Assembly (NCBI GenBank): GCA_022821725.1
Contig: JAJEDB010000043.1
Coordinates: 143,900 to 207,899 of the forward strand
DNA: 64,000 nt
Reading direction: 5' to 3'
Origin: Candidatus Poribacteria bacterium
Lineage (GTDB): Bacteria > Poribacteria > WGA-4E > WGA-3G
The number at the start of each line of letters is the position of its first letter. Position 1 is the stretch's first letter. The notes below the pieces were generated by a model. That model worked only from the letters and a program-made list of their open reading frames with translations, ran no database searches and was not told the DNA's origin. The translations under genes were made by a program, and so were the position numbers. Below, piece after piece: positions 30,759 through 49,569 of this stretch.

Positions 30759-30932
30759 ATACAAACAAAAGGATATTTTACGGAAAGAAGTTCCAAAAGG
30801 GTTATTCTTATCAATGGACACCAACTTGCCCAATTTATGATTGACCACAACGTTGGCGTTTCCGTAGAGAAAACCTACGAAATCAAGCGCGTAGATTCCG
30901 ATTATTTTGCTGAAGATACCAAAAACGTCTGA
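30759..30932 (+). pseudogene. C-terminal remnant of an Mrr-type restriction endonuclease
   Basis: 58-codon open frame with no start: IQTKGYFTERSSKRVILINGHQLAQFMIDHNVGVSVEKTYEIKRVDSDYFAEDTKNV*. It matches the conserved Mrr C-terminus (..VLIDGxxLAxLMIxHxVGV..Y.IKRIDxDYF) as I recall it. The N-terminal ~250 aa are absent. Confidence 0.65.
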
Positions 30933-30957
30933 GCATGTTAGCAACAAGAGAGAAAAA

Positions 30958-32559
30958 ATGAGAACATTCGGAACCCAAGGTCCTGTAAATCCTGAAGTAA
31001 ACTACGTTGTGAGTCGCGACGAGGAACTTGCGGATTTTATCGACAGAGTGAAAAAAGGGAAATACATCGTCCTCTTCGCGCCCCGCCAAACAGGCAAGAC
31101 AACTCTCTTTCGCGCCGCCATAGACACCCTCATAACTGAGATATATTTTCCAATTCAGATGAATTTTGAGTTGTATGTAGACTATCCGGTTCCCGATTTC
31201 TATGTCTCTTTCCATAAAAGGCTTTGCGAGCAGATTGAATGGGTTTTTGAAAGACGAGGGACAACGTCTTCTAAAACACTCAACGAATTTTTGGAGAATA
31301 CAGAGGTAACAGATCAAGTTACAATGGTGGAATTCTTTAAGCAGCTTGTTCGTTTTCTACCCGATCATGGCAGTTTCCCAAAGGTTGTCCTTATCATTGA
31401 TGAGTTTGATGCTATCCCGCCTGATGCCGTTCGCGGTTTCCTTCATTCACTTCGCTACATTTACCTCGACACCTCAGGTGTCCGATGTCCCTACAGTGTC
31501 GGTATTGTTGGGGTTAAAAACATCACGCAGCTCAACTACGACCGGTCAATCTCACCTTTCAATATCCAAGATGAGTTTCACTTGCCGAATTTCACGCTCG
31601 CGCAAGTCCAAGAACTCCTGGATCAATACACCAACGAAGTAGGACAAATCTTCGTGCCTGAAATCATCACCGCTATTCACAAACAGACGGCTGGACAACC
31701 TTTTCTCGTCAATCGGTGTGCGCAAATTCTTACCGAGGAACTGGACATTCCTAAAACGGAACCGATTACGATGGTTCACTTTTCTAAAGCACACACGCAA
31801 CTTCTTGAGGAAGGGAATACCAACATCAGTCATCTACTGACCAATATCCGCAGGAATCGTCGCTTTGAAAGCCTCCTTATGCGGATATCTTCTTATGAGA
31901 GAGGTTTGCGTTTCAATCCAGACGATGAGATCATTGACGAACTCGCTATGTATGGTGTAGTTGCGAAAGGGGATGACGGCATGTGTGAGATCGTGAATCC
32001 GATCTATCAACACCGCATTCTGCAGGCATACAAACCGCCATTTAATGGACTGGAGAGCGAGTATTTCTCCGAGGAAAACGGAGATGATTTCATTGATTAT
32101 GTCAACATTGATGAAGCAATTGAGATGGGGCCGCTCCTTGATAACTTTCAGACGTTCATTGGGCGAGTCGGTTTTCGTATTCTGCAAGTACCAGATACGC
32201 CACGAGAATATGTCGGTCAACATCTCCTTTACGCCTATCTGGACCATTTCGTTCAGAGCGTCGGTGCCAATATGTTCCTTGAAGTCCAAACTGGGCGCGG
32301 ACGGATAGACCTCCTTGTTGTCCACAACCAACGCAAATACATCGTTGAGACAAAAATATGGGAAGGCGATAGATACTATCAGGCAGGCAAGAAGCAACTC
32401 GCTGCGTATCTCAAATCAGAAGGGGTACAGGAAGGATATTATGTCGTATTCGATCATCGTAACAATCCTACGCCTCGCGTCGAGACGGAAACAGTAGAAG
32501 GTTTGACAATTCGGAGTTACGTTATTCCTGTGATGCAAGAACAACCCTCATCGACTTAG
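30958..32559 (+). CDS. AAA-like (AAA_35/Arch_ATPase-like) NTPase fused to a C-terminal PD-(D/E)XK nuclease
   Basis: 533 aa. Walker A APRQTGKTT, Walker B VVLIIDEFD (nt 31399-31404), C-terminal GRIDLLV..YIVETK (D451, E464, K466; nt 32308-32355). Confidence 0.8.
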   Translation: MRTFGTQGPVNPEVNYVVSRDEELADFIDRVKKGKYIVLFAPRQTGKTTLFRAAIDTLITEIYFPIQMNFELYVDYPVPDFYVSFHKRLCEQIEWVFERRGTTSSKTLNEFLENTEVTDQVTMVEFFKQLVRFLPDHGSFPKVVLIIDEFDAIPPDAVRGFLHSLRYIYLDTSGVRCPYSVGIVGVKNITQLNYDRSISPFNIQDEFHLPNFTLAQVQELLDQYTNEVGQIFVPEIITAIHKQTAGQPFLVNRCAQILTEELDIPKTEPITMVHFSKAHTQLLEEGNTNISHLLTNIRRNRRFESLLMRISSYERGLRFNPDDEIIDELAMYGVVAKGDDGMCEIVNPIYQHRILQAYKPPFNGLESEYFSEENGDDFIDYVNIDEAIEMGPLLDNFQTFIGRVGFRILQVPDTPREYVGQHLLYAYLDHFVQSVGANMFLEVQTGRGRIDLLVVHNQRKYIVETKIWEGDRYYQAGKKQLAAYLKSEGVQEGYYVVFDHRNNPTPRVETETVEGLTIRSYVIPVMQEQPSST

Positions 32560-41898: not shown

Positions 41899-42429
41899 AT
41901 GTGTGCAAATCCCTTTGAACTTGAAGCGTTAACACAAGCCTCCAAGAAACAGAGCGACAATTGGGAAATAAACCCGCTCTTCAGCGAATACTTTGAACAA
42001 CCTGTCCGTTTTATTACGTATACAGGCATAAAAGATCTATCGAAAATTAAAACGAAGCCTTATCTACTCAGGGGTGTTGATGCCGACCGTGAAAGGATTC
42101 AGATAGGCAAACTTCATATCTTATTTGCATTTCCGAAAGAGAAAATGCCGGATGTGAAACCCTACGTGAAAATCAGGACATCCGTGAAAGCCCAGAAACT
42201 TCAACCGATTGAGGACCCAAACGAACGGTTCCATGTTAATGACGAAGTTCTTCAGCAGGCGCAGCAAGACAAATCTAACGTCAACCTTGTCACACGGACA
42301 GGGCATGTTTTGAATGGATGTATCCAACATTTTGACAAATATATTCTCTATATGCAGCTTGGCGAGCAGGTCGTAGTTGTGTATCGGCACGGCTTGTTTG
42401 AGTTCACAATCCCAGAGCAAGCAGATTAA
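41899..42429 (+). CDS. Hypothetical protein with C-terminal Sm/Hfq-like motif
   Basis: 176 aa. C-terminus NVNLVTRTGHVLNGCIQHFDKYILYMQLGEQVVVVYRHGLFEF resembles the Hfq Sm1/Sm2 pattern. Confidence 0.5.
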   Translation: MCANPFELEALTQASKKQSDNWEINPLFSEYFEQPVRFITYTGIKDLSKIKTKPYLLRGVDADRERIQIGKLHILFAFPKEKMPDVKPYVKIRTSVKAQKLQPIEDPNERFHVNDEVLQQAQQDKSNVNLVTRTGHVLNGCIQHFDKYILYMQLGEQVVVVYRHGLFEFTIPEQAD

Positions 42430-42454
42430 CGCGCTGCGAACGCCTCGTAGGGTC

Positions 42455-42514
42455 GGTGCGGTTTCTGAACCGCTTGAACCCCAGGTCTGGTCGGTGCGGT
42501 TTCCCAACCGCACC
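42455..42514 (+). repeat. Two tandem family-1 REP hairpins
   Basis: TCGGTGCGGTTTCTGAACCGC (42455-42473, 3' arm truncated) and TCGGTGCGGTTTCCCAACCGCACC (42493-42514). Confidence 0.75.
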
Positions 42515-42727
42515 TTATACATCAATATTGGAAAAAATTGATACGTTTTGGTTTGGCGTTGACGGGTATTGACAATAATCAACACATGTCGGTTTCGACA
42601 TTTTTATTTACCGCCTCACAGACCCTCCTACTGGATCACAGAGGGTGTATCAATGAATTTTCTAATGTTGCGTAAGTCCTAAACATCATCATTTTAATGC
42701 GATATAATCTTTTAGAAGTGGTATTAG

Positions 42728-42979
42728 ATGGGTGATACTCAAATGAAATTGTGGCAAAAATCAAAAGCAAATATACGCCCCTGTTTCCTCTATGGACTCG
42801 TATCCGTTGTGTTGAAACTCATCATAGAAGGCAATAGCGAATTTACACCCATTTCTTGGGGCATTTCTTTCGTTATACATTCCACTGTTATCTATGGACT
42901 CACTGTCGGGATGAACGTGGCTTTTGCAATTGTCGGTGAAATCAAGCAATGGCTAACGAGAAATCTTATGGGTGAATAA
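42728..42979 (+). CDS. Small two-TM membrane protein
   Basis: 83 aa. Hydrophobic segments CFLYGLVSVVLKLII and VIYGLTVGMNVAFAIV. Confidence 0.4.
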   Translation: MGDTQMKLWQKSKANIRPCFLYGLVSVVLKLIIEGNSEFTPISWGISFVIHSTVIYGLTVGMNVAFAIVGEIKQWLTRNLMGE

Positions 42980-43039
42980 CTGATCACACAAAGGAGAAGG
43001 TATGACACAAGCACAGATGAAATCCGTTGCAGAAATGTC

Positions 43040-43576
43040 GTGGTGGTATTATACATCAAAAAAAAACTCGCCGCGGCTCACAATCTCACCGAAAAACAGA
43101 TAGATGAACTTCGCAGATCCCCTGGGTATAAAAAGTGCGTGTTCAATCTAATGCTTGGACAGCGACACACTTTAGAAGAATTCGACAAATGGGTCAAAGA
43201 TCTCAGTCCGGGAATGGGAATGCCTAAGCGGTTTGGTAGACGAATGGGGCTTGAACCCGAAGAAGTTGAGTACCTCGTTGCGCGTGTGCGTCAGGCTCAC
43301 AATGAGATAGTTTCCGGCAAAGCCAAAGCCCCGAAGCCCATCCCAGACCCTTTAAAGCGAATTGAAAACCATAAGCATGGACTCTATAGGGAACAGGGAC
43401 GGAAGTGTAACGGATGCAAGGAAATCTTCAGTTTCTCTGACATGACAATTGATCATATCATACCGCGCTCCAGAGGCGGAACAGACGCTCTTGAGAATCT
43501 GCAGTTGTTGTGTCAGTCGTGCAATTCGTCAAAAGGTGCTCACACACAAGAGGAATGGGTAAGAGGCAAACTCTGA
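43040..43576 (+). CDS. HNH endonuclease (likely 5'-extended to 43002 through an A9 frame change)
   Basis: C-terminus CNGC..DHIIPRSRGGTDALENLQLLCQSCNSSKG. The GTG at 43040 has no SD. An SD-equipped ATG at 43002 is in the +1 register until the A9 run. Confidence 0.85.
   Translation: MVVLYIKKKLAAAHNLTEKQIDELRRSPGYKKCVFNLMLGQRHTLEEFDKWVKDLSPGMGMPKRFGRRMGLEPEEVEYLVARVRQAHNEIVSGKAKAPKPIPDPLKRIENHKHGLYREQGRKCNGCKEIFSFSDMTIDHIIPRSRGGTDALENLQLLCQSCNSSKGAHTQEEWVRGKL
43058..43066 (+). other. A9 homopolymer / A_AAA_AAA slippery heptamer
   Basis: Counted directly. In the frame of ATG 43002 the codons read TCA AAA AAA AAC. Confidence 0.9.
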
Positions 43577-43672
43577 TAAACCTGATTTACTACGCCAGTT
43601 TCGATTGGCGCGCTGAAAATCCATCAATTGAAACGACTACCATAAACAACCTAATGAAAGGAGTAATGCAAA

Positions 43673-43885
43673 GTGAATATCCCCAAAGAATACGCTGTTT
43701 GCGATCCTGATTATCGGGGTGGCGGCGGTCTTGCTGAAGATGTTGGACTTTTGCGTGATTTCGTGAGAACGATAAAATCACTTGAAGCCGAACATCACAT
43801 TTGCCTAACTTCACTTGATTCCGAAGCAAAAGTGAAGTTTGAACAACTCTGTAAACCACTACTTGATTATCTCTATATGGAATAA
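43673..43885 (+). CDS. Hypothetical small protein
   Basis: 70 aa. GTG start 9 nt after AAAGGAG. No recognisable motif. Confidence 0.35.
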   Translation: MNIPKEYAVCDPDYRGGGGLAEDVGLLRDFVRTIKSLEAEHHICLTSLDSEAKVKFEQLCKPLLDYLYME

Positions 43886-44029
43886 TCAAATAATCTTAGG
43901 ACTTATGCAGTTCGCCTTAAAGCCCCCTGATAAGGGAATTTAGGGGGTTTAAAGAATGAAAATTACCACTTTTATGGATCGGGCATTCCCCTCCATGCGA
44001 AAGCATGGAGTCCCTGCCCGAAGAAATTG

Positions 44030-44347
44030 ATGGAACATCCAAATTGGACAAAAACTGATTCGCGAAAATCCAAGCAAATTTGGGCGGAATACCAAGAGCA
44101 ACACGATATCTCCGATCGAATTGGACAAACAGCCGGCATCGATCCAAAAAGCGGCAAGATTTGGTTCGGCGACTCCATCTCAGAAATCGTAGAACATCGA
44201 CGTGCTGAAGGTATGACCTCTCCGCTTTTCTTTGAACTCGTCGGCTTTAAAGCCTATTTTCGGAAGGGTGGGCATCGCTATTGTATTGGAACGGGTTCTA
44301 TGAGACAAATGTTTAAAAATCATGCTCAACATCAAACCCACGCATAA
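44030..44347 (+). CDS. Hypothetical small protein overlapping the methyltransferase start
   Basis: 105 aa (..GQTAGIDPKSGKIWFGDSISEIV..PLFFELVG..YFRKGGHR). The 3' end overlaps the downstream ATG by 26 nt. Confidence 0.45.
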   Translation: MEHPNWTKTDSRKSKQIWAEYQEQHDISDRIGQTAGIDPKSGKIWFGDSISEIVEHRRAEGMTSPLFFELVGFKAYFRKGGHRYCIGTGSMRQMFKNHAQHQTHA

Positions 44348-47300
44348 ACCCATCAAGACATACTATACCGAACTCCAGGAATATACCCATATCGGTGTAG
44401 AACACGAAGGTGCCGTCCGAACCGCATTCCAAAACCTACTCCAATATTACTGCCGACAGGCATCCTTAACCCTCGTTTGCGAAAAGCCTCACTATATTGC
44501 CGAAGGTAGACGGATCCGACCGGATGGCGAAGTCGTCGATACCTTCAAGTTACCCTACGGCTACTGGGAAGCAAAGGACACACAGGACGATCTCTACGTT
44601 GAAGCGAGCAAGAAATTTGCAGCAGGCTACCCGTCAAAAAACATCGTTATCCAGTCACCGACGCACGCGCTCCTCTATCAGCACGGGACATTACAACTGG
44701 ATTTAGACATCACCGAGCCGAGAAACCTCGTCCGTGTGCTTCAAGGTTTTTTCGCATATCAGGAAGATAACATCGCGGCATGGCAGACCGCCGTCACTGA
44801 ATTCAGAGACACAGTGCCAGCACTCGGCGCAGAGCTGGGGGTGCTCATCGAAACGGAACGCCAAAACAATACGCGATTTCAAGAGGCGTTCACCCGTTTC
44901 TACGAACAGTGCCGAGTCTCCATTAATCCGAACCTCTCCATCGCAGCAGTAGAGGAGATGCTCATCCAGCACCTATTGACCGAACGCATCTTCCGCACCG
45001 TCTTTAATAACCGTGACTTCACACGCCGCAATATCATCGCACGCGAGATTGAGAACGTCATCGACGCGCTCACCTCACAGACGTTCGATAGGAATCAATT
45101 TCTCCAAAGTTTAGACCCGTTCTACGTTGCCATCGAACAGACCGCCAACACGATCACGGATTTCTCACAGAAACAGGGATTCCTCAACACTGTTTATGAG
45201 CAGTTTTTTCAAGGCTTCTCCGTCAAGGTTGCGGACACGCACGGCATCGTCTACACCCCACAGCCGATCGTTGACTTCATGGTGAAAAGCGTTGAACATA
45301 TCTTGCAGACCGAGTTCAAACGCTCCCTTTCGGACAGCGGTGTGAACATCATCGACCCGTTCGTCGGCACCGGTAACTTCATCGTCCGTATCATGCAAGC
45401 ACTCGATCCCATCTCGTTAGAGCGAAAATATACCGCCGACCCGCCGGAACTCCAATGTAACGAGGTGATGCTCCTACCCTACTACATCGCCAGTCTCAAC
45501 ATTGAGCATCAGTTCTATACAGCAACGAACCGATACATCCCCTACGAAGGTCTCTGCCTCGTAGATACCTTTGAGTTGGCAGAGGATCGGGAGCAGCTGG
45601 AGCTGTTCACGCCCGATAACACCGCACGCGCCGAGAAACAAAAAGAGACCCCGATGTTCGTGGTTATCGGCAATCCCCCCTATAATGTCGGTCAGCTCAA
45701 TGAGAACGACAACAACAAGAACCGAGAGCATACGACGATGGATACGTCGATTAAGAATACTTATGCAAGAGATTCCAAATCGACACTCAGGCGTCAACTT
45801 TACGATCCATACATAAAGGCGATTCGATGGGCGTTGGATCGGATTGACGAGGAAGGTGTTGTCGCCTTTGTAACGAACAACAGTTTTATTGAAGGTTTAG
45901 CGTTTGACGGCATGCGGAAACACCTCGCCACTGATTGCGATGCGATCTATATTTTGGATTTAGGTGGAAATGCGAGAAAGGGATTAAAGGTTGCCGATGC
46001 GAATGTATTTGGGATTCGGGTCGGTGTAAGTATCAATTTGTTTGTGAAGAAAAAGCAGAATTCATCAGAATCAGCAAGCATTTTCTACCATCGCACGGAT
46101 GACCTGTGGAACAGAGAACAGAAGTTCAATTTTCTCAATGAATGTGAACACGTCGGTGGTATTACGTGGCAGCCGATTCAACCCGATACGCGACATACAT
46201 GGCTCACCGAGGGGATCCATGCCGAGTTTGATGCCTTTATTCCGATGGGAACCAAAGCAGCAAGAGGACAAAGAGGCACAACAGTAAACGTAATTTTTCA
46301 GGCCTACGCCACCGGTATCAGCACGGGACGTGATGCTTGGGTTTACAATTTCAACCAAAATACTCTCAGAGAGAACACGAACAGGATAATTGAAAATTAC
46401 AACGCGGAAGTTGACCGATGGGCACGACGGGCAGATCGTGATGCTGACCTTGATAATTTTGTAGCGTCTAACGACACGGAAATCAAGTGGAGCCGAGACC
46501 TAAAAGCAAAGTTACGGAGAGGAAGAACGGTGGAATATGCAGAACACAAGGTAAGGGCATCCCTTTATCGTCCATTTACGAAATCAAATCTCTATTTCGA
46601 TCAAACGATAGATGATGTGGTATCGGTATTCCCGACTATCTTCCCTACACCAGAAACAGAAAATCGAGTAATTTGTGTCGCTGGTTCTGGTAATAGAAAA
46701 GGTTTCGGTTGTCTTGCTACAAACGTAATTTCTACCTATGATTTAGCATTTGAAAAAACACGATGCTTCCCTTTCTACACCTACGACGAGGACGGCACGA
46801 ACCGCCGCGAAAACATCACTGACTGGGCATTGGAACATTTCCGAACCCACTACAAAGACGACACCCTCACCAAATGGGACATCTTCCACTACACCTACGG
46901 ACTCCTCCATCACCCGGACTATCGCGAGAAATACGAGGCGAACCTCAAACGCGATCTGCCGCATATCCCGTTTGCGAAAGACTTCTGGGGATTTGCGAAG
47001 GCTGGTGCACGACTTTCAGAAATCCACGTCAATTACGAATCCCAACCCGAATACGAATTGAAGTTCATCCAGAACCCAGACGCACCCCTCGATTGGCGTG
47101 TGGAGAAGATGAAATTCTCCAAAGACAAAACCTCGCTTGTCTACAACGATTTCCTGACGCTTGGGAACATTCCGCCAAAGGCGTTTGATTACCGACTCGG
47201 CACCCGCTCCGCGCTGGAGTGGATCGTGGATCAGTATCGCGTGAAAACAGACAAACGAAGCAGTATCGCCAACGACCCAAACCGTGTTGACGATCCGCAG

Positions 47301-47405
47301 TATATCGTCAAGTTAATCGGTCAGGTCATCACCGTCAGTTTAGAAACGGTGGGCATTGTTGAAGGGTTGCCCTCGTTGGATGTGAAGATTCCCACTCAAG
47401 GTTGA
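44322..47405 (+). CDS. Type ISP/IIG-like N6-adenine DNA methyltransferase with C-terminal specificity domain and no translocase module
   Basis: 1027 aa. GIVYTPQPIVDFMV, DPFVGTGNF (nt 45354-45380), NPPY (nt 45672-45683). C-terminal ..WDIFHYTYGLLHHPDYREKY..LKRDLPHIPF.. N-terminal RPDG..YWEAKD. Confidence 0.9.
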   Translation: MLNIKPTHKPIKTYYTELQEYTHIGVEHEGAVRTAFQNLLQYYCRQASLTLVCEKPHYIAEGRRIRPDGEVVDTFKLPYGYWEAKDTQDDLYVEASKKFAAGYPSKNIVIQSPTHALLYQHGTLQLDLDITEPRNLVRVLQGFFAYQEDNIAAWQTAVTEFRDTVPALGAELGVLIETERQNNTRFQEAFTRFYEQCRVSINPNLSIAAVEEMLIQHLLTERIFRTVFNNRDFTRRNIIAREIENVIDALTSQTFDRNQFLQSLDPFYVAIEQTANTITDFSQKQGFLNTVYEQFFQGFSVKVADTHGIVYTPQPIVDFMVKSVEHILQTEFKRSLSDSGVNIIDPFVGTGNFIVRIMQALDPISLERKYTADPPELQCNEVMLLPYYIASLNIEHQFYTATNRYIPYEGLCLVDTFELAEDREQLELFTPDNTARAEKQKETPMFVVIGNPPYNVGQLNENDNNKNREHTTMDTSIKNTYARDSKSTLRRQLYDPYIKAIRWALDRIDEEGVVAFVTNNSFIEGLAFDGMRKHLATDCDAIYILDLGGNARKGLKVADANVFGIRVGVSINLFVKKKQNSSESASIFYHRTDDLWNREQKFNFLNECEHVGGITWQPIQPDTRHTWLTEGIHAEFDAFIPMGTKAARGQRGTTVNVIFQAYATGISTGRDAWVYNFNQNTLRENTNRIIENYNAEVDRWARRADRDADLDNFVASNDTEIKWSRDLKAKLRRGRTVEYAEHKVRASLYRPFTKSNLYFDQTIDDVVSVFPTIFPTPETENRVICVAGSGNRKGFGCLATNVISTYDLAFEKTRCFPFYTYDEDGTNRRENITDWALEHFRTHYKDDTLTKWDIFHYTYGLLHHPDYREKYEANLKRDLPHIPFAKDFWGFAKAGARLSEIHVNYESQPEYELKFIQNPDAPLDWRVEKMKFSKDKTSLVYNDFLTLGNIPPKAFDYRLGTRSALEWIVDQYRVKTDKRSSIANDPNRVDDPQYIVKLIGQVITVSLETVGIVEGLPSLDVKIPTQG

Positions 47406-47430
47406 TTTTCGCGCGGCGATATGATATACT
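47402..47430 (+). promoter_or_regulatory. Promoter of the ATPase paralogue
   Basis: TTGATT-N17-TATACT with TGA extended -10 (the -35 overlaps the MTase stop). AAGGAGG SD at 47437-47443. Confidence 0.55.
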
Positions 47431-47448
47431 AAATTCAAGGAGGACATT

Positions 47449-48540
47449 ATGAGACGTTTCGGAACACAGGGTCCTGTAAATCCTGAAGAACATTATATTG
47501 TGGCGCGCGCTGCAGAAACGGCGGATTTCATCAATCGTGTCAGAGAGGGCAGGTATATTGTTTTGTTCGCGCCGCGCCAAACCGGCAAGACAACCTTTTT
47601 TCACTCGGTCCTTGAGGCACTCGTTGCACAGGATTCAATCTATTTTCCGATTCAACTGAATTTTGAGGCTTATGCGGATTACGACCGTGCCAGTTTTTAC
47701 GCTTCTCTCCATAACGAGATTTGCGAAGAAATTCGGCGAGTTTTTCAGAAACGCGGACAGGCTCCCTCTGAAACATTGACACAATTCTTGGTGAACACGC
47801 AGATAACCGATCATTTTTCGATGAGAAATTTCTTTCAGGAATTTGATAAGCATCTCGCTATACATTATAATAATTCGCAGCGGGTTATCCTTTTTATGGA
47901 TGCCTTTCACGGGATCCCCCTGGCACTTGAGAACAGTTTTTTGGCTTCGCTCCGGTCCATCTATCTTACGCATAAACCACACTGCCCTCACAGCGTCTGT
48001 TTTGTGAGTGTCAGAAGTATCATCCAACGCGACATGATCAACACTGTATCTCCGTTCAATATCCAGGATGCGTTCCATTTGCCCAACTTCACACTTGAGC
48101 AGGTGCGTGAACTCCTCACACAGTACACAGAGACAGTGGGGCAGGACTTTGAACCAGAGATTGTCGAAGCACTTCACAAACAGACGGCTGGTCACCCCTT
48201 CCTCGTCAATCGGCTCACAGAGATTCTTACCGAAGAGATGAAAATTTTGAAAACTGAACCGATTACAATGGAATATTTTTCAGAGGCATACACGCGGATA
48301 CTTCAAGAACATAACGCCAACTTCGATCATCTGCTTACCTATATCTGCCGATCCTCTCAATTTGAAGGCATTCTAACGAGAATCATGTCTCGTTCTGGTA
48401 GGGGCGTGCTCTTCGATTGGTCCGATGAACGCATTGATGAACTTGCCACAAACGGTATAATCTCTGAAGGTAATTACGGAACTTGCCAAATTGCCAATCC
48501 GATTTATTTCAATTACATCAAACGGGTGTTCAGCACATAA
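47449..48540 (+). CDS. AAA-like NTPase paralogue lacking the nuclease domain and the Walker B glutamate
   Basis: 363 aa. The first 51 aa share 38 identities with the 30958 protein. Walker A APRQTGKTT retained. Walker B position reads VILFMDAFH (nt 47899-47904). Ends where the paralogue continues into its nuclease half. Confidence 0.8.
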   Translation: MRRFGTQGPVNPEEHYIVARAAETADFINRVREGRYIVLFAPRQTGKTTFFHSVLEALVAQDSIYFPIQLNFEAYADYDRASFYASLHNEICEEIRRVFQKRGQAPSETLTQFLVNTQITDHFSMRNFFQEFDKHLAIHYNNSQRVILFMDAFHGIPLALENSFLASLRSIYLTHKPHCPHSVCFVSVRSIIQRDMINTVSPFNIQDAFHLPNFTLEQVRELLTQYTETVGQDFEPEIVEALHKQTAGHPFLVNRLTEILTEEMKILKTEPITMEYFSEAYTRILQEHNANFDHLLTYICRSSQFEGILTRIMSRSGRGVLFDWSDERIDELATNGIISEGNYGTCQIANPIYFNYIKRVFST

Positions 48541-48648
48541 TTTAAAGCACTTGGGCAGGAGTCCTCTCTTGAAAACACCAGCAGGAACTTTGTTAAAAAT
48601 CAGTAGAGAACACTTATCAATTTACAGTGTAGTGTGCGGAGAAATTTT

Positions 48649-49569
48649 ATGAAATACACGCTTCTCATAGCTCTCATCTTCGTGTGCATACCAGTAGCCG
48701 CGAATAATACGGATATCCACGAAAATGCTGGCACTCGCGCCATGACCTTCCTCAAAATCGGTGTCGGCGCAGAGGCGATGAGCATGGGGGAATCCCAAGT
48801 CGCAGCGGCCGATGACCTTTACGCCTCGTATTGGAACCCCGCAGGTCTCGCAAGACTCCGACAGCCGCAACTCGCACTGATGCATAACAGATGGTTCGCC
48901 GATATTAACCACGAATTCGTCGGGTTCGCACTTCCGCTTAAAGGGGCAGGCACGTTTGGTGCCAGCGCGAGTTTCTTGTCTTTCGGGGAATTGCAGGGCC
49001 GGGATCGGGATGGGAATGAAACCACGATTTTCCGTCCTTATGATCTGGCACTGATTCTCTCGTATGCTCGCGGTTTCGGCAGTTCACTCGCTTTTGGGGC
49101 GAATGCGAAATTCCTGCGTGAGCAGATCGCTGACGAAAGCGGAACGGGTATCGCTTTCGATCTCGGTGGACTCTATAATTTTCCTGAGATACCGCTCGCA
49201 TTGGGATTCAACGCACAGCACGTCGGTCCCCGCGTGAAGTTCATAGAGGAGGCGTTCGGGTTACCCTTTACCTTCAGGGTAGGCGTGGCTTACAGGCTCT
49301 GGAGTGACGCACTCCTCCTCACGACAGACATCATTCGTCCTTCCGACAACGATATTGCCATCGGGGTCGGTGCAGGGTACACGATCGGTAATGTTTTACA
49401 CCTCCGCACCGGCTATAAATACAAGATTGGCGGTAACGATTTGGGCGCGATTTCTGGACTCAGAGGTGGTTTTGGGTTGACGTTCCTCCGCTTCCAAATC
49501 GACTATGCGCTCATCCCGTTCGGCGTTCTTGGATTAACCCACCGTGTCTCCTTAGTCGCCAATTTTTAG
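48649..49569 (+). CDS. PorV/PorQ family outer-membrane beta-barrel protein
   Basis: Signal peptide MKYTLLIALIFVCIPVAA. GAEAMSMGESQVAAADDLYASYWNPAGLA. C-terminal ..SLVANF. Confidence 0.8.
   Translation: MKYTLLIALIFVCIPVAANNTDIHENAGTRAMTFLKIGVGAEAMSMGESQVAAADDLYASYWNPAGLARLRQPQLALMHNRWFADINHEFVGFALPLKGAGTFGASASFLSFGELQGRDRDGNETTIFRPYDLALILSYARGFGSSLAFGANAKFLREQIADESGTGIAFDLGGLYNFPEIPLALGFNAQHVGPRVKFIEEAFGLPFTFRVGVAYRLWSDALLLTTDIIRPSDNDIAIGVGAGYTIGNVLHLRTGYKYKIGGNDLGAISGLRGGFGLTFLRFQIDYALIPFGVLGLTHRVSLVANF

Follow-up and report, generated by a model that had tools for sequence, protein, structure and literature searches.

What kind of enzyme is encoded by a gene that joins a DNA methyltransferase (MTase) to a Type ISP-like specificity domain and carries no helicase motor? 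This question is raised by the gene at positions 44322 to 47405 in a stretch of 64,000 nucleotides (nt) from a Candidatus Poribacteria sponge symbiont (assembly GCA_022821725.1, contig JAJEDB010000043.1), hereafter the window. An original prediction, made from the letters of the window, described the product as a single chain combining Type IIG and Type ISP parts, with a possible N-terminal PD-ExK nuclease core, and put it forward as potentially novel. We conclude that the gene very probably encodes a stand-alone, ATP-independent restriction-modification (RM) enzyme of the DrdV-type Type IIL (Type IIG) class. The single-chain arrangement of nuclease, MTase and target recognition domain (TRD) without a motor is real, but it is already known from DrdV and is not a new hybrid.

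Homology to DrdV and domain layout

The gene lies on the forward strand as one long open reading frame (ORF) of 1027 amino acids (aa) with an ATG start. It is intact, and the nearest in-frame stop upstream is at 44301, seven codons before the ATG. In a search of solved structures, the protein aligned in a single stretch with DrdV (aa 12-1018 against DrdV 7-1026, entry 7lo5_A and also 7lvv, E 2.3e-195). The entries 7LO5 and 7LVV represent DrdV, a Type IIL RM enzyme of 1029 aa from Deinococcus wulumuqiensis 479 characterized by biochemistry and cryo-electron microscopy (Shen et al., bioRxiv 10.1101/2021.01.06.425610). The Poribacteria protein and DrdV are 37.5% identical over aa 12-894, with 32% in the nuclease, 30% in the connector, 42% in the MTase and 38% in the TRD. 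The PADLOC profile REase_MTase_IIG (PDLC03621) likewise covers nearly the entire protein (aa 11-1017 against profile positions 6-1013 of 1024, E 9e-184). All sequence and structure traits of the DrdV-type family that could be checked were found in the protein. The last 157 aa (46932-47402) are nearer to the Type ISP enzymes LlaGI (E 5e-35) and LlaBIII (E 4e-32) than to DrdV (E 2.6e-17).

Nuclease, connector, MTase and TRD together account for the whole 1027 aa in collinear order. The gene, its domains and its motifs are as follows.

44322..47405, + strand: very probably a complete DrdV-type Type IIL (IIG) restriction-modification gene, 1027 aa (intact ORF; full-length DrdV and PADLOC matches)
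44322..44846, + strand: N-terminal PD-ExK endonuclease domain, aa 1-175, predicted from DrdV nuclease homology, fold and conservation
44406-44408, 44523-44525, 44568-44570, 44574-44576 and 44613-44615, + strand: predicted active-site codons E29, D68, E83, K85 and K98, respectively
44523-44576, + strand: D68 to K85 within RPDGEVVDTFKLPYGYWEAKD (aa 66-86), which holds D68/E83/K85
44847..45215, + strand: all-helical connector or ISP-coupler domain, aa 176-298 (Pfam ISP_coupler, model, Foldseek)
45216..46241, + strand: gamma-class N6-adenine DNA methyltransferase domain, aa 299-640 (Pfam N6_Mtase and Eco57I)
45243-45284, + strand: motif X GIVYTPQPIVDFMV, aa 308-321
45354-45380, + strand: motif I DPFVGTGNF, aa 345-353
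45672-45683, + strand: motif IV NPPY, aa 451-454
46242..47402, + strand: TRD of the Type_ISP_C fold, aa 641-1027 (Pfam Type_ISP_C; aligns with the TRDs of DrdV, LlaGI and LlaBIII)
aa 830-844, + strand: C-terminal string ENITDWALEHFRTHY
aa 852-884, + strand: C-terminal string WDIFHY...HIPF

The MTase motifs, the D68/E83/K85 triad and the C-terminal strings occur exactly at the amino acid and nucleotide positions assigned to them in the original prediction. Pfam places ISP_coupler at aa 180-280 (E 1.5e-17) and the matches to N6_Mtase and Eco57I across aa 287-549, with N6_Mtase itself at aa 287-476. The C-terminal third had been recognized as a Type ISP specificity domain, and this is borne out by the Type_ISP_C match at aa 658-998 (E 7.5e-106). 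No Pfam model matches aa 1-175. Searches with Pfam, NCBIfam and PADLOC found no helicase or AAA/ATPase domain in the 1027-aa protein, in agreement with the proposed lack of a helicase motor, and Pfam found no Mrr domain either.

The nuclease domain

The nuclease site of DrdV consists of the metal ligands D64 and E79, the PD-ExK lysine K81, whose mutation abolishes catalysis, as well as E25 and K94 (bioRxiv 10.1101/2021.01.06.425610). The alignment pairs D68, E83 and K85 of the Poribacteria protein with D64, E79 and K81, and E29 and K98 with E25 and K94. If aa 1-180 are searched alone, DrdV is the only match (E 2.9e-22). All five residues (E29, D68, E83, K85 and K98) are invariant in an alignment of aa 1-300 comprising the query and 43 relatives with identities down to 52%. 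The conservation of the five active-site residues over such a range implies selection on catalysis.

An AlphaFold2 model of aa 1-300, built on the same 44-sequence alignment, reached a predicted local distance difference test score (pLDDT) of 87.8 and a predicted template modelling score (pTM) of 0.79. In the model, D68 opens a strand at aa 69-72, while E83 and K85 lie at the end of a strand at aa 78-84. Such strand placement is the canonical PD-ExK arrangement described for MmeI (Morgan et al. 2009). The model is helical over aa 149-295. The top Foldseek match in the PDB is DrdV (E 8.7e-19 over 289 columns), and the isolated DrdV nuclease chains 7lvv_C and 7lvv_D superpose on the model with template modelling (TM) scores of 0.92 and 0.89 and root-mean-square deviations (rmsd) of 1.5 and 1.7 Å, respectively. 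Foldseek matches to LlaGI and LlaBIII are confined to the helical coupler part of the model. Weaker matches concern restriction-endonuclease-like folds, namely an HsdR fragment (3h1t), 3ijm and BpuSI. Judged by alignment, conservation and predicted fold, D68-X14-E83-X-K85 is a genuine PD-ExK core. The possible core noted in the original prediction thus gains support from the DrdV alignment, from invariance in the 44 sequences and from the fold match. The structural check that the prediction had proposed for aa 1-300 recovered a restriction-endonuclease fold (AlphaFold2 and Foldseek, TM about 0.9 against the DrdV nuclease).

Adenine pocket and recognition sequence

DrdV residues N448, Y451 and F562 touch the flipped adenine (bioRxiv 10.1101/2021.01.06.425610), and all three are kept as N451, Y454 and F563. 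DrdV recognizes CATGNAC and cuts 10/8 nt downstream (bioRxiv 10.1101/2021.01.06.425610). The main text of the DrdV study names four residues that contact bases. Of these, D803 and K807 are kept (D807 and K812), and K486 and K488 are changed to R490 and Q492. Because two of the four base-contact residues are changed, a site other than CATGNAC is expected. The recognition sequence is probably related to, but different from, that of DrdV.

Proposed mechanism

A working scheme can be borrowed from DrdV. The MTase-TRD cleft would bind a short asymmetric site and flip one adenine into the NPPY pocket. Slow methylation of that single strand, dependent on S-adenosylmethionine, would shield the host DNA. 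The nuclease domain would be out of reach of the DNA bound by its own chain. Two site-bound enzymes would instead dimerize via their connectors and swap nuclease domains, and a third and fourth bound molecule would complete the nuclease dimer, so that both strands are cut at a short fixed distance downstream. Cleavage would be licensed only once several unmethylated sites meet, for example in incoming phage DNA. Such synapsis of site-bound enzymes is expected here rather than ATP-driven translocation and collision because the Mrr-family nuclease and the superfamily 2 (SF2) motor are both absent.

Genomic neighbourhood

DrdV functions as a single protein, and the question arises whether the Poribacteria gene also stands alone. 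None of the nine neighbouring ORFs examined is a separate MTase or specificity gene. Upstream of the RM gene lies a variable slot (42572-44321) containing an HNH gene and several orphan ORFs. The GC content is 0.43-0.44 in 42000-44500 against about 0.51 in the flanks. The main neighbours are listed below.

41899-42429: 176-aa protein with a C-terminal Hfq-like domain (Pfam Hfq, E 8e-8)
43040-43576, same strand as the RM gene: HNH endonuclease gene
47449-48540, same strand as the RM gene: AAA_35 NTPase gene, 363 aa, starting 44 nt past the RM stop codon

The AAA_35 gene has a paralogue at 30907-32559 (550 aa) with an additional C-terminal NERD/PDDEXK_9 nuclease. The Hfq-like protein delimits the variable slot on its left side, and its conservation is 98% in L002 and about 50% in L001 and L011. 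L001 and L002 are the two nearest orthologous loci, and in both the RM gene is located directly upstream of a PorV-GATase-DUF6807-MiaB-MAP series and downstream of the Hfq-like domain. The position is more generally conserved in related Poribacteria, with PorV-like and GATase genes directly 3' and the Hfq-like gene 5' where the upstream flank is kept. A polysaccharide-export gene is also kept in L002.

The genes filling the slots differ between loci. At L001, the upstream slot is filled by large SACS-domain proteins and the downstream one by an ORF of 150 aa. At L002, an IS3-family transposase, an ORF of 451 aa and a bAvd/23S_rRNA_IVP-like gene occupy the upstream slot, and the downstream slot is empty. 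The AAA_35 gene is missing from L002, where the alignment skips from window position 47445 to 48476 and only a 20-aa 3' remnant is left, within flanks that are 97-98% identical. Near DrdV-like genes in 89 other loci, an HNH gene was found in two (at other positions), an AAA_35 gene in three, and the orphan ORFs in none. Since the neighbours vary even between loci with 97-98% identical flanks, the RM enzyme is a stand-alone system like DrdV, without a conserved partner gene.

Relatives and paralogues

The host is a Candidatus Poribacteria metagenome-assembled genome (MAG) of 4.97 Mb in 151 contigs, 91% complete. It encodes six intact full-length DrdV-type paralogues at 100, 81, 64, 63, 62 and 61% identity, the gene in the window included. 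Both the five nuclease residues (E, D, E, K, K) and the motifs of the MTase are kept in all six. A reading of the copies on C64 and C32 as pseudogenes with an internal TAA was rejected, as the TAA is the natural stop and was read through by the alignment. The same genome also encodes a canonical Type ISP enzyme and further related proteins.

C135:188221-191301 (= window 44322-47402): DrdV-type paralogue
C72:26308-29379: DrdV-type paralogue
C54:38419-41493: DrdV-type paralogue
C64:10474-13524: DrdV-type paralogue
C32:571-3633: DrdV-type paralogue
C127:24147-27206: DrdV-type paralogue
C80:1136-5953 (L091:37-4854, - strand): canonical Type ISP enzyme, 1605 aa, with Mrr_cat_2 (E 9e-34), ResIII, Helicase_C, coupler, MTase and Type_ISP_C
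C89 (L093): second Type ISP gene, cut by the contig end
C66 (L092:53-3142): further motor-less Type_ISP_C protein, 1029 aa, 28% identity

Relatives are abundant beyond the host genome. In a contig scan with at least 598 matching stretches, at least 585 encode collinear relatives of about 1025 aa. A word-indexed search gave at least 8000 matches, the best 120 of them at 78-94% identity. Close relatives among the matches listed come almost all from Candidatus Poribacteria MAGs, followed by Latescibacterota and Caldilineaceae MAGs, and are often multicopy. An enrichment of RM systems in sponge symbionts has already been documented (PMC5649159). In public records, close homologues are labelled merely 'N-6 DNA methylase'. 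This label likely understates such genes, which by their sequence would be complete RM enzymes.

Mosaic structure

DNA identities within the gene are uneven. In a MAFFT alignment with the L002 orthologue (L002:6001-9084), aa 1-400 reach 93-98% and aa 851-1000 reach 91-95%, and the value drops to 57-87% over aa 401-850. The low-identity segment (window 45522-46871) comprises the DNA-contacting half of the MTase and the TRD core, whereas the 5' 1.2 kb and the 3' end are 91-98% identical to L002. L001 (L001:6001-9063) belongs to a more distant genome with flanks at only 68-82%, yet it matches the TRD core (aa 651-800) at 97-99%. The paralogue on C72 in the same genome shares 89-96% over the MTase core (aa 301-600) and 91% over aa 851-900, with most else at 58-84%.

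These identities show the gene to be a patchwork, as would fit an exchange of specificity segments by recombination. A specificity segment swapped between otherwise 97-98% identical genomes is what a functioning RM specificity module should show in its evolution. Together, the orthologue and paralogue mosaics point to diversifying specificity, a familiar theme among RM genes. More tentatively, and as something short of probable, we suggest that a recombining pool might be formed by the DrdV-type genes that Poribacteria and co-resident sponge symbionts carry, with segments swapped between paralogues of one genome and between lineages. The exchanged segments would be the nuclease with the connector, the MTase core and the TRD core. 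If true, such a pool would yield new restriction specificities faster than point mutation.

Alternative explanations

Several observations weigh against the assignment to a functional DrdV-type enzyme. What the enzyme does, which site it reads, how far away it cuts and whether it needs several sites would all be carried over from a DrdV that is only about 37% identical. A scan of 42400-48700 for promoter and terminator consensus sequences gave counts at the level of shuffled sequence. In DrdV, F304 stacks on the flipped adenine; the aligned residue here is V310, and the adjacent Y311 may substitute for F304. The DrdV connector is the central dimer interface, in which acidic D224, E230 and D231 pair with basic K251, R252 and K259 (bioRxiv 10.1101/2021.01.06.425610). 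The residues aligned with the interface at window 45006-45116 (aa 229-265) are N229, R235 and R236 together with D256, R257 and D265, with charges largely reversed. As the interface charges differ from DrdV, the same oligomerization geometry is not proven. R236 and R257 are invariant across the 44 relatives, and within the subfamily an R-R ... D pattern is the most frequent. The charge reversal might be a compensating rewiring that keeps dimerization, but with a pattern only partly consistent across the family it is no more than suggestive.

Of the rival readings, a role as MTase only is the least unlikely. The protein might act as an orphan or epigenetic MTase with an N-terminal nuclease that is inactive or repurposed. 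The naming of close homologues as 'N-6 DNA methylase' in public records fits such a role, as do the MmeI homologues without nuclease activity found by Morgan et al. and the six paralogues in this one genome, some of which could be redundant. However, those inactive MmeI homologues are devoid of any PD-ExK motif, whereas here the five nuclease residues are invariant in the 44 relatives and the six paralogues, and the fold, predicted with confidence, overlays that of the DrdV nuclease with an rmsd of 1.5-1.7 Å. We consider an MTase-only function improbable. The RM gene could also be one part of a multi-gene defence cluster (42669-48540) with the HNH gene, the orphan ORFs and the AAA_35 gene. All these genes share a strand and lie near one another, the AAA_35 gene follows 44 nt after the RM stop, and the GC content across 42000-44500 is lower than in the flanks. 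Against this stand the scarcity of these genes at the 89 other loci (2/89, 3/89 and 0/89 for HNH, AAA_35 and the orphan ORFs), the different neighbours at L001 and L002, the latter without AAA_35, and the fact that DrdV functions as a single protein. A cluster with HNH and AAA_35 was rejected as the neighbours are not conserved, and we regard it as very improbable. Least credible, to the point of being negligible, is the idea of a decayed Type ISP enzyme, stripped of motor and nuclease, that relies in trans on the genome's canonical Type ISP enzymes. Homology of the coupler, MTase and TRD to LlaGI and LlaBIII, the closer similarity of the last 157 aa to LlaGI than to DrdV, and the complete 1605-aa Type ISP enzyme encoded in the same genome would be in line with such an origin. 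Yet the protein shows no truncation, its own conserved nuclease is of the DrdV type and not Mrr, and at least 585 collinear relatives of about 1025 aa indicate a stable architecture rather than a product of decay. A stand-alone DrdV-type RM enzyme accounts best for the intact gene, the conserved nuclease and the variable neighbours.

Significance

As a discovery, the finding carries little weight. Architecture, structure and mechanism were published for DrdV in 2021, and profile libraries already cover the family. The existence of a characterized relative was what the original prediction itself had named as decisive against novelty, and DrdV is such a relative. The gene appears to be an ordinary anti-phage defence gene and one more intact Type IIL enzyme, with a recognition sequence that is probably new. 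The large and naturally mosaic set from sponge symbionts could be of wider use as a natural library linking TRD sequence to DNA specificity, a link that is a long-standing aim of restriction-enzyme engineering.

Comparison with known systems

A BREX methyltransferase of the PglX/BrxX type was rejected. PADLOC gave RM-class profiles only, and what surrounds the RM gene are HNH, AAA_35, Hfq-like and PorV-like genes rather than brx genes. The MmeI family and BpuSI (PDB 5HR4 and 3S1S) share with the Poribacteria protein the N-terminal PD-ExK nuclease, helical spacer, gamma-class MTase and TRD in one chain, and they modify a single strand. MmeI residues D70, E80 and K82 lie at a similar position, compared without direct alignment, with a spacing of D-X9-E-X-K against D-X14-E-X-K. 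The MmeI nuclease domain is disordered in the crystal structure (bioRxiv 10.1101/2021.01.06.425610). MmeI cuts about 20 bp away, compared with 10/8 nt for DrdV, and BpuSI is matched by the model at a Foldseek E of only 0.28. Membership in the MmeI family, which requires similarity over the whole of MmeI (Morgan et al. 2009), was rejected: Pfam MmeI_Mtase scored 18.9 bits, short of its cut-off of 27, and none of the other MmeI_* domains matched.

LlaGI and LlaBIII, both of the Type ISP class, are closer, with homologous coupler, gamma-class MTase and TRD and the shared Pfam domains ISP_coupler and Type_ISP_C. LlaGI (5ffj) and LlaBIII (4xqk) align only from aa 189 (aa 189-1021, E 2.7e-156 and 6e-142), the corresponding LlaGI residues being 584-1404. 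The original prediction had considered the first 300 aa or so unlike Type ISP enzymes. This holds for aa 1 to about 175 and fails beyond, given ISP_coupler at aa 180-280 and the LlaGI and LlaBIII alignments from aa 189. Two defining Type ISP traits are lacking, namely a nuclease of the Mrr family at the N-terminus (no Mrr_cat in Pfam) and the motor, an SF2 helicase-like ATPase (no ResIII and no Helicase_C in Pfam). The MTase and TRD of DrdV are themselves highly similar to those of LlaGI and LlaBIII (bioRxiv 10.1101/2021.01.06.425610), and Type ISP enzymes have been described as Type IIL-like with a motor inserted (PMC4872093).

DrdV remains the closest counterpart. The two proteins are 1029 and 1027 aa long, with four domains in the same order. 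They share the D/E/K site with the accessory E and K, the NPPY adenine pocket, the lack of an ATPase and a gene that stands alone. The predicted single chain joining Type IIG and Type ISP parts is hence a real architecture, and its novelty is unsupported because the characterized DrdV has exactly this architecture. The Poribacteria enzyme differs from DrdV in an identity of only about 37%, in its source phylum and in the expansion of the family to six copies per genome.

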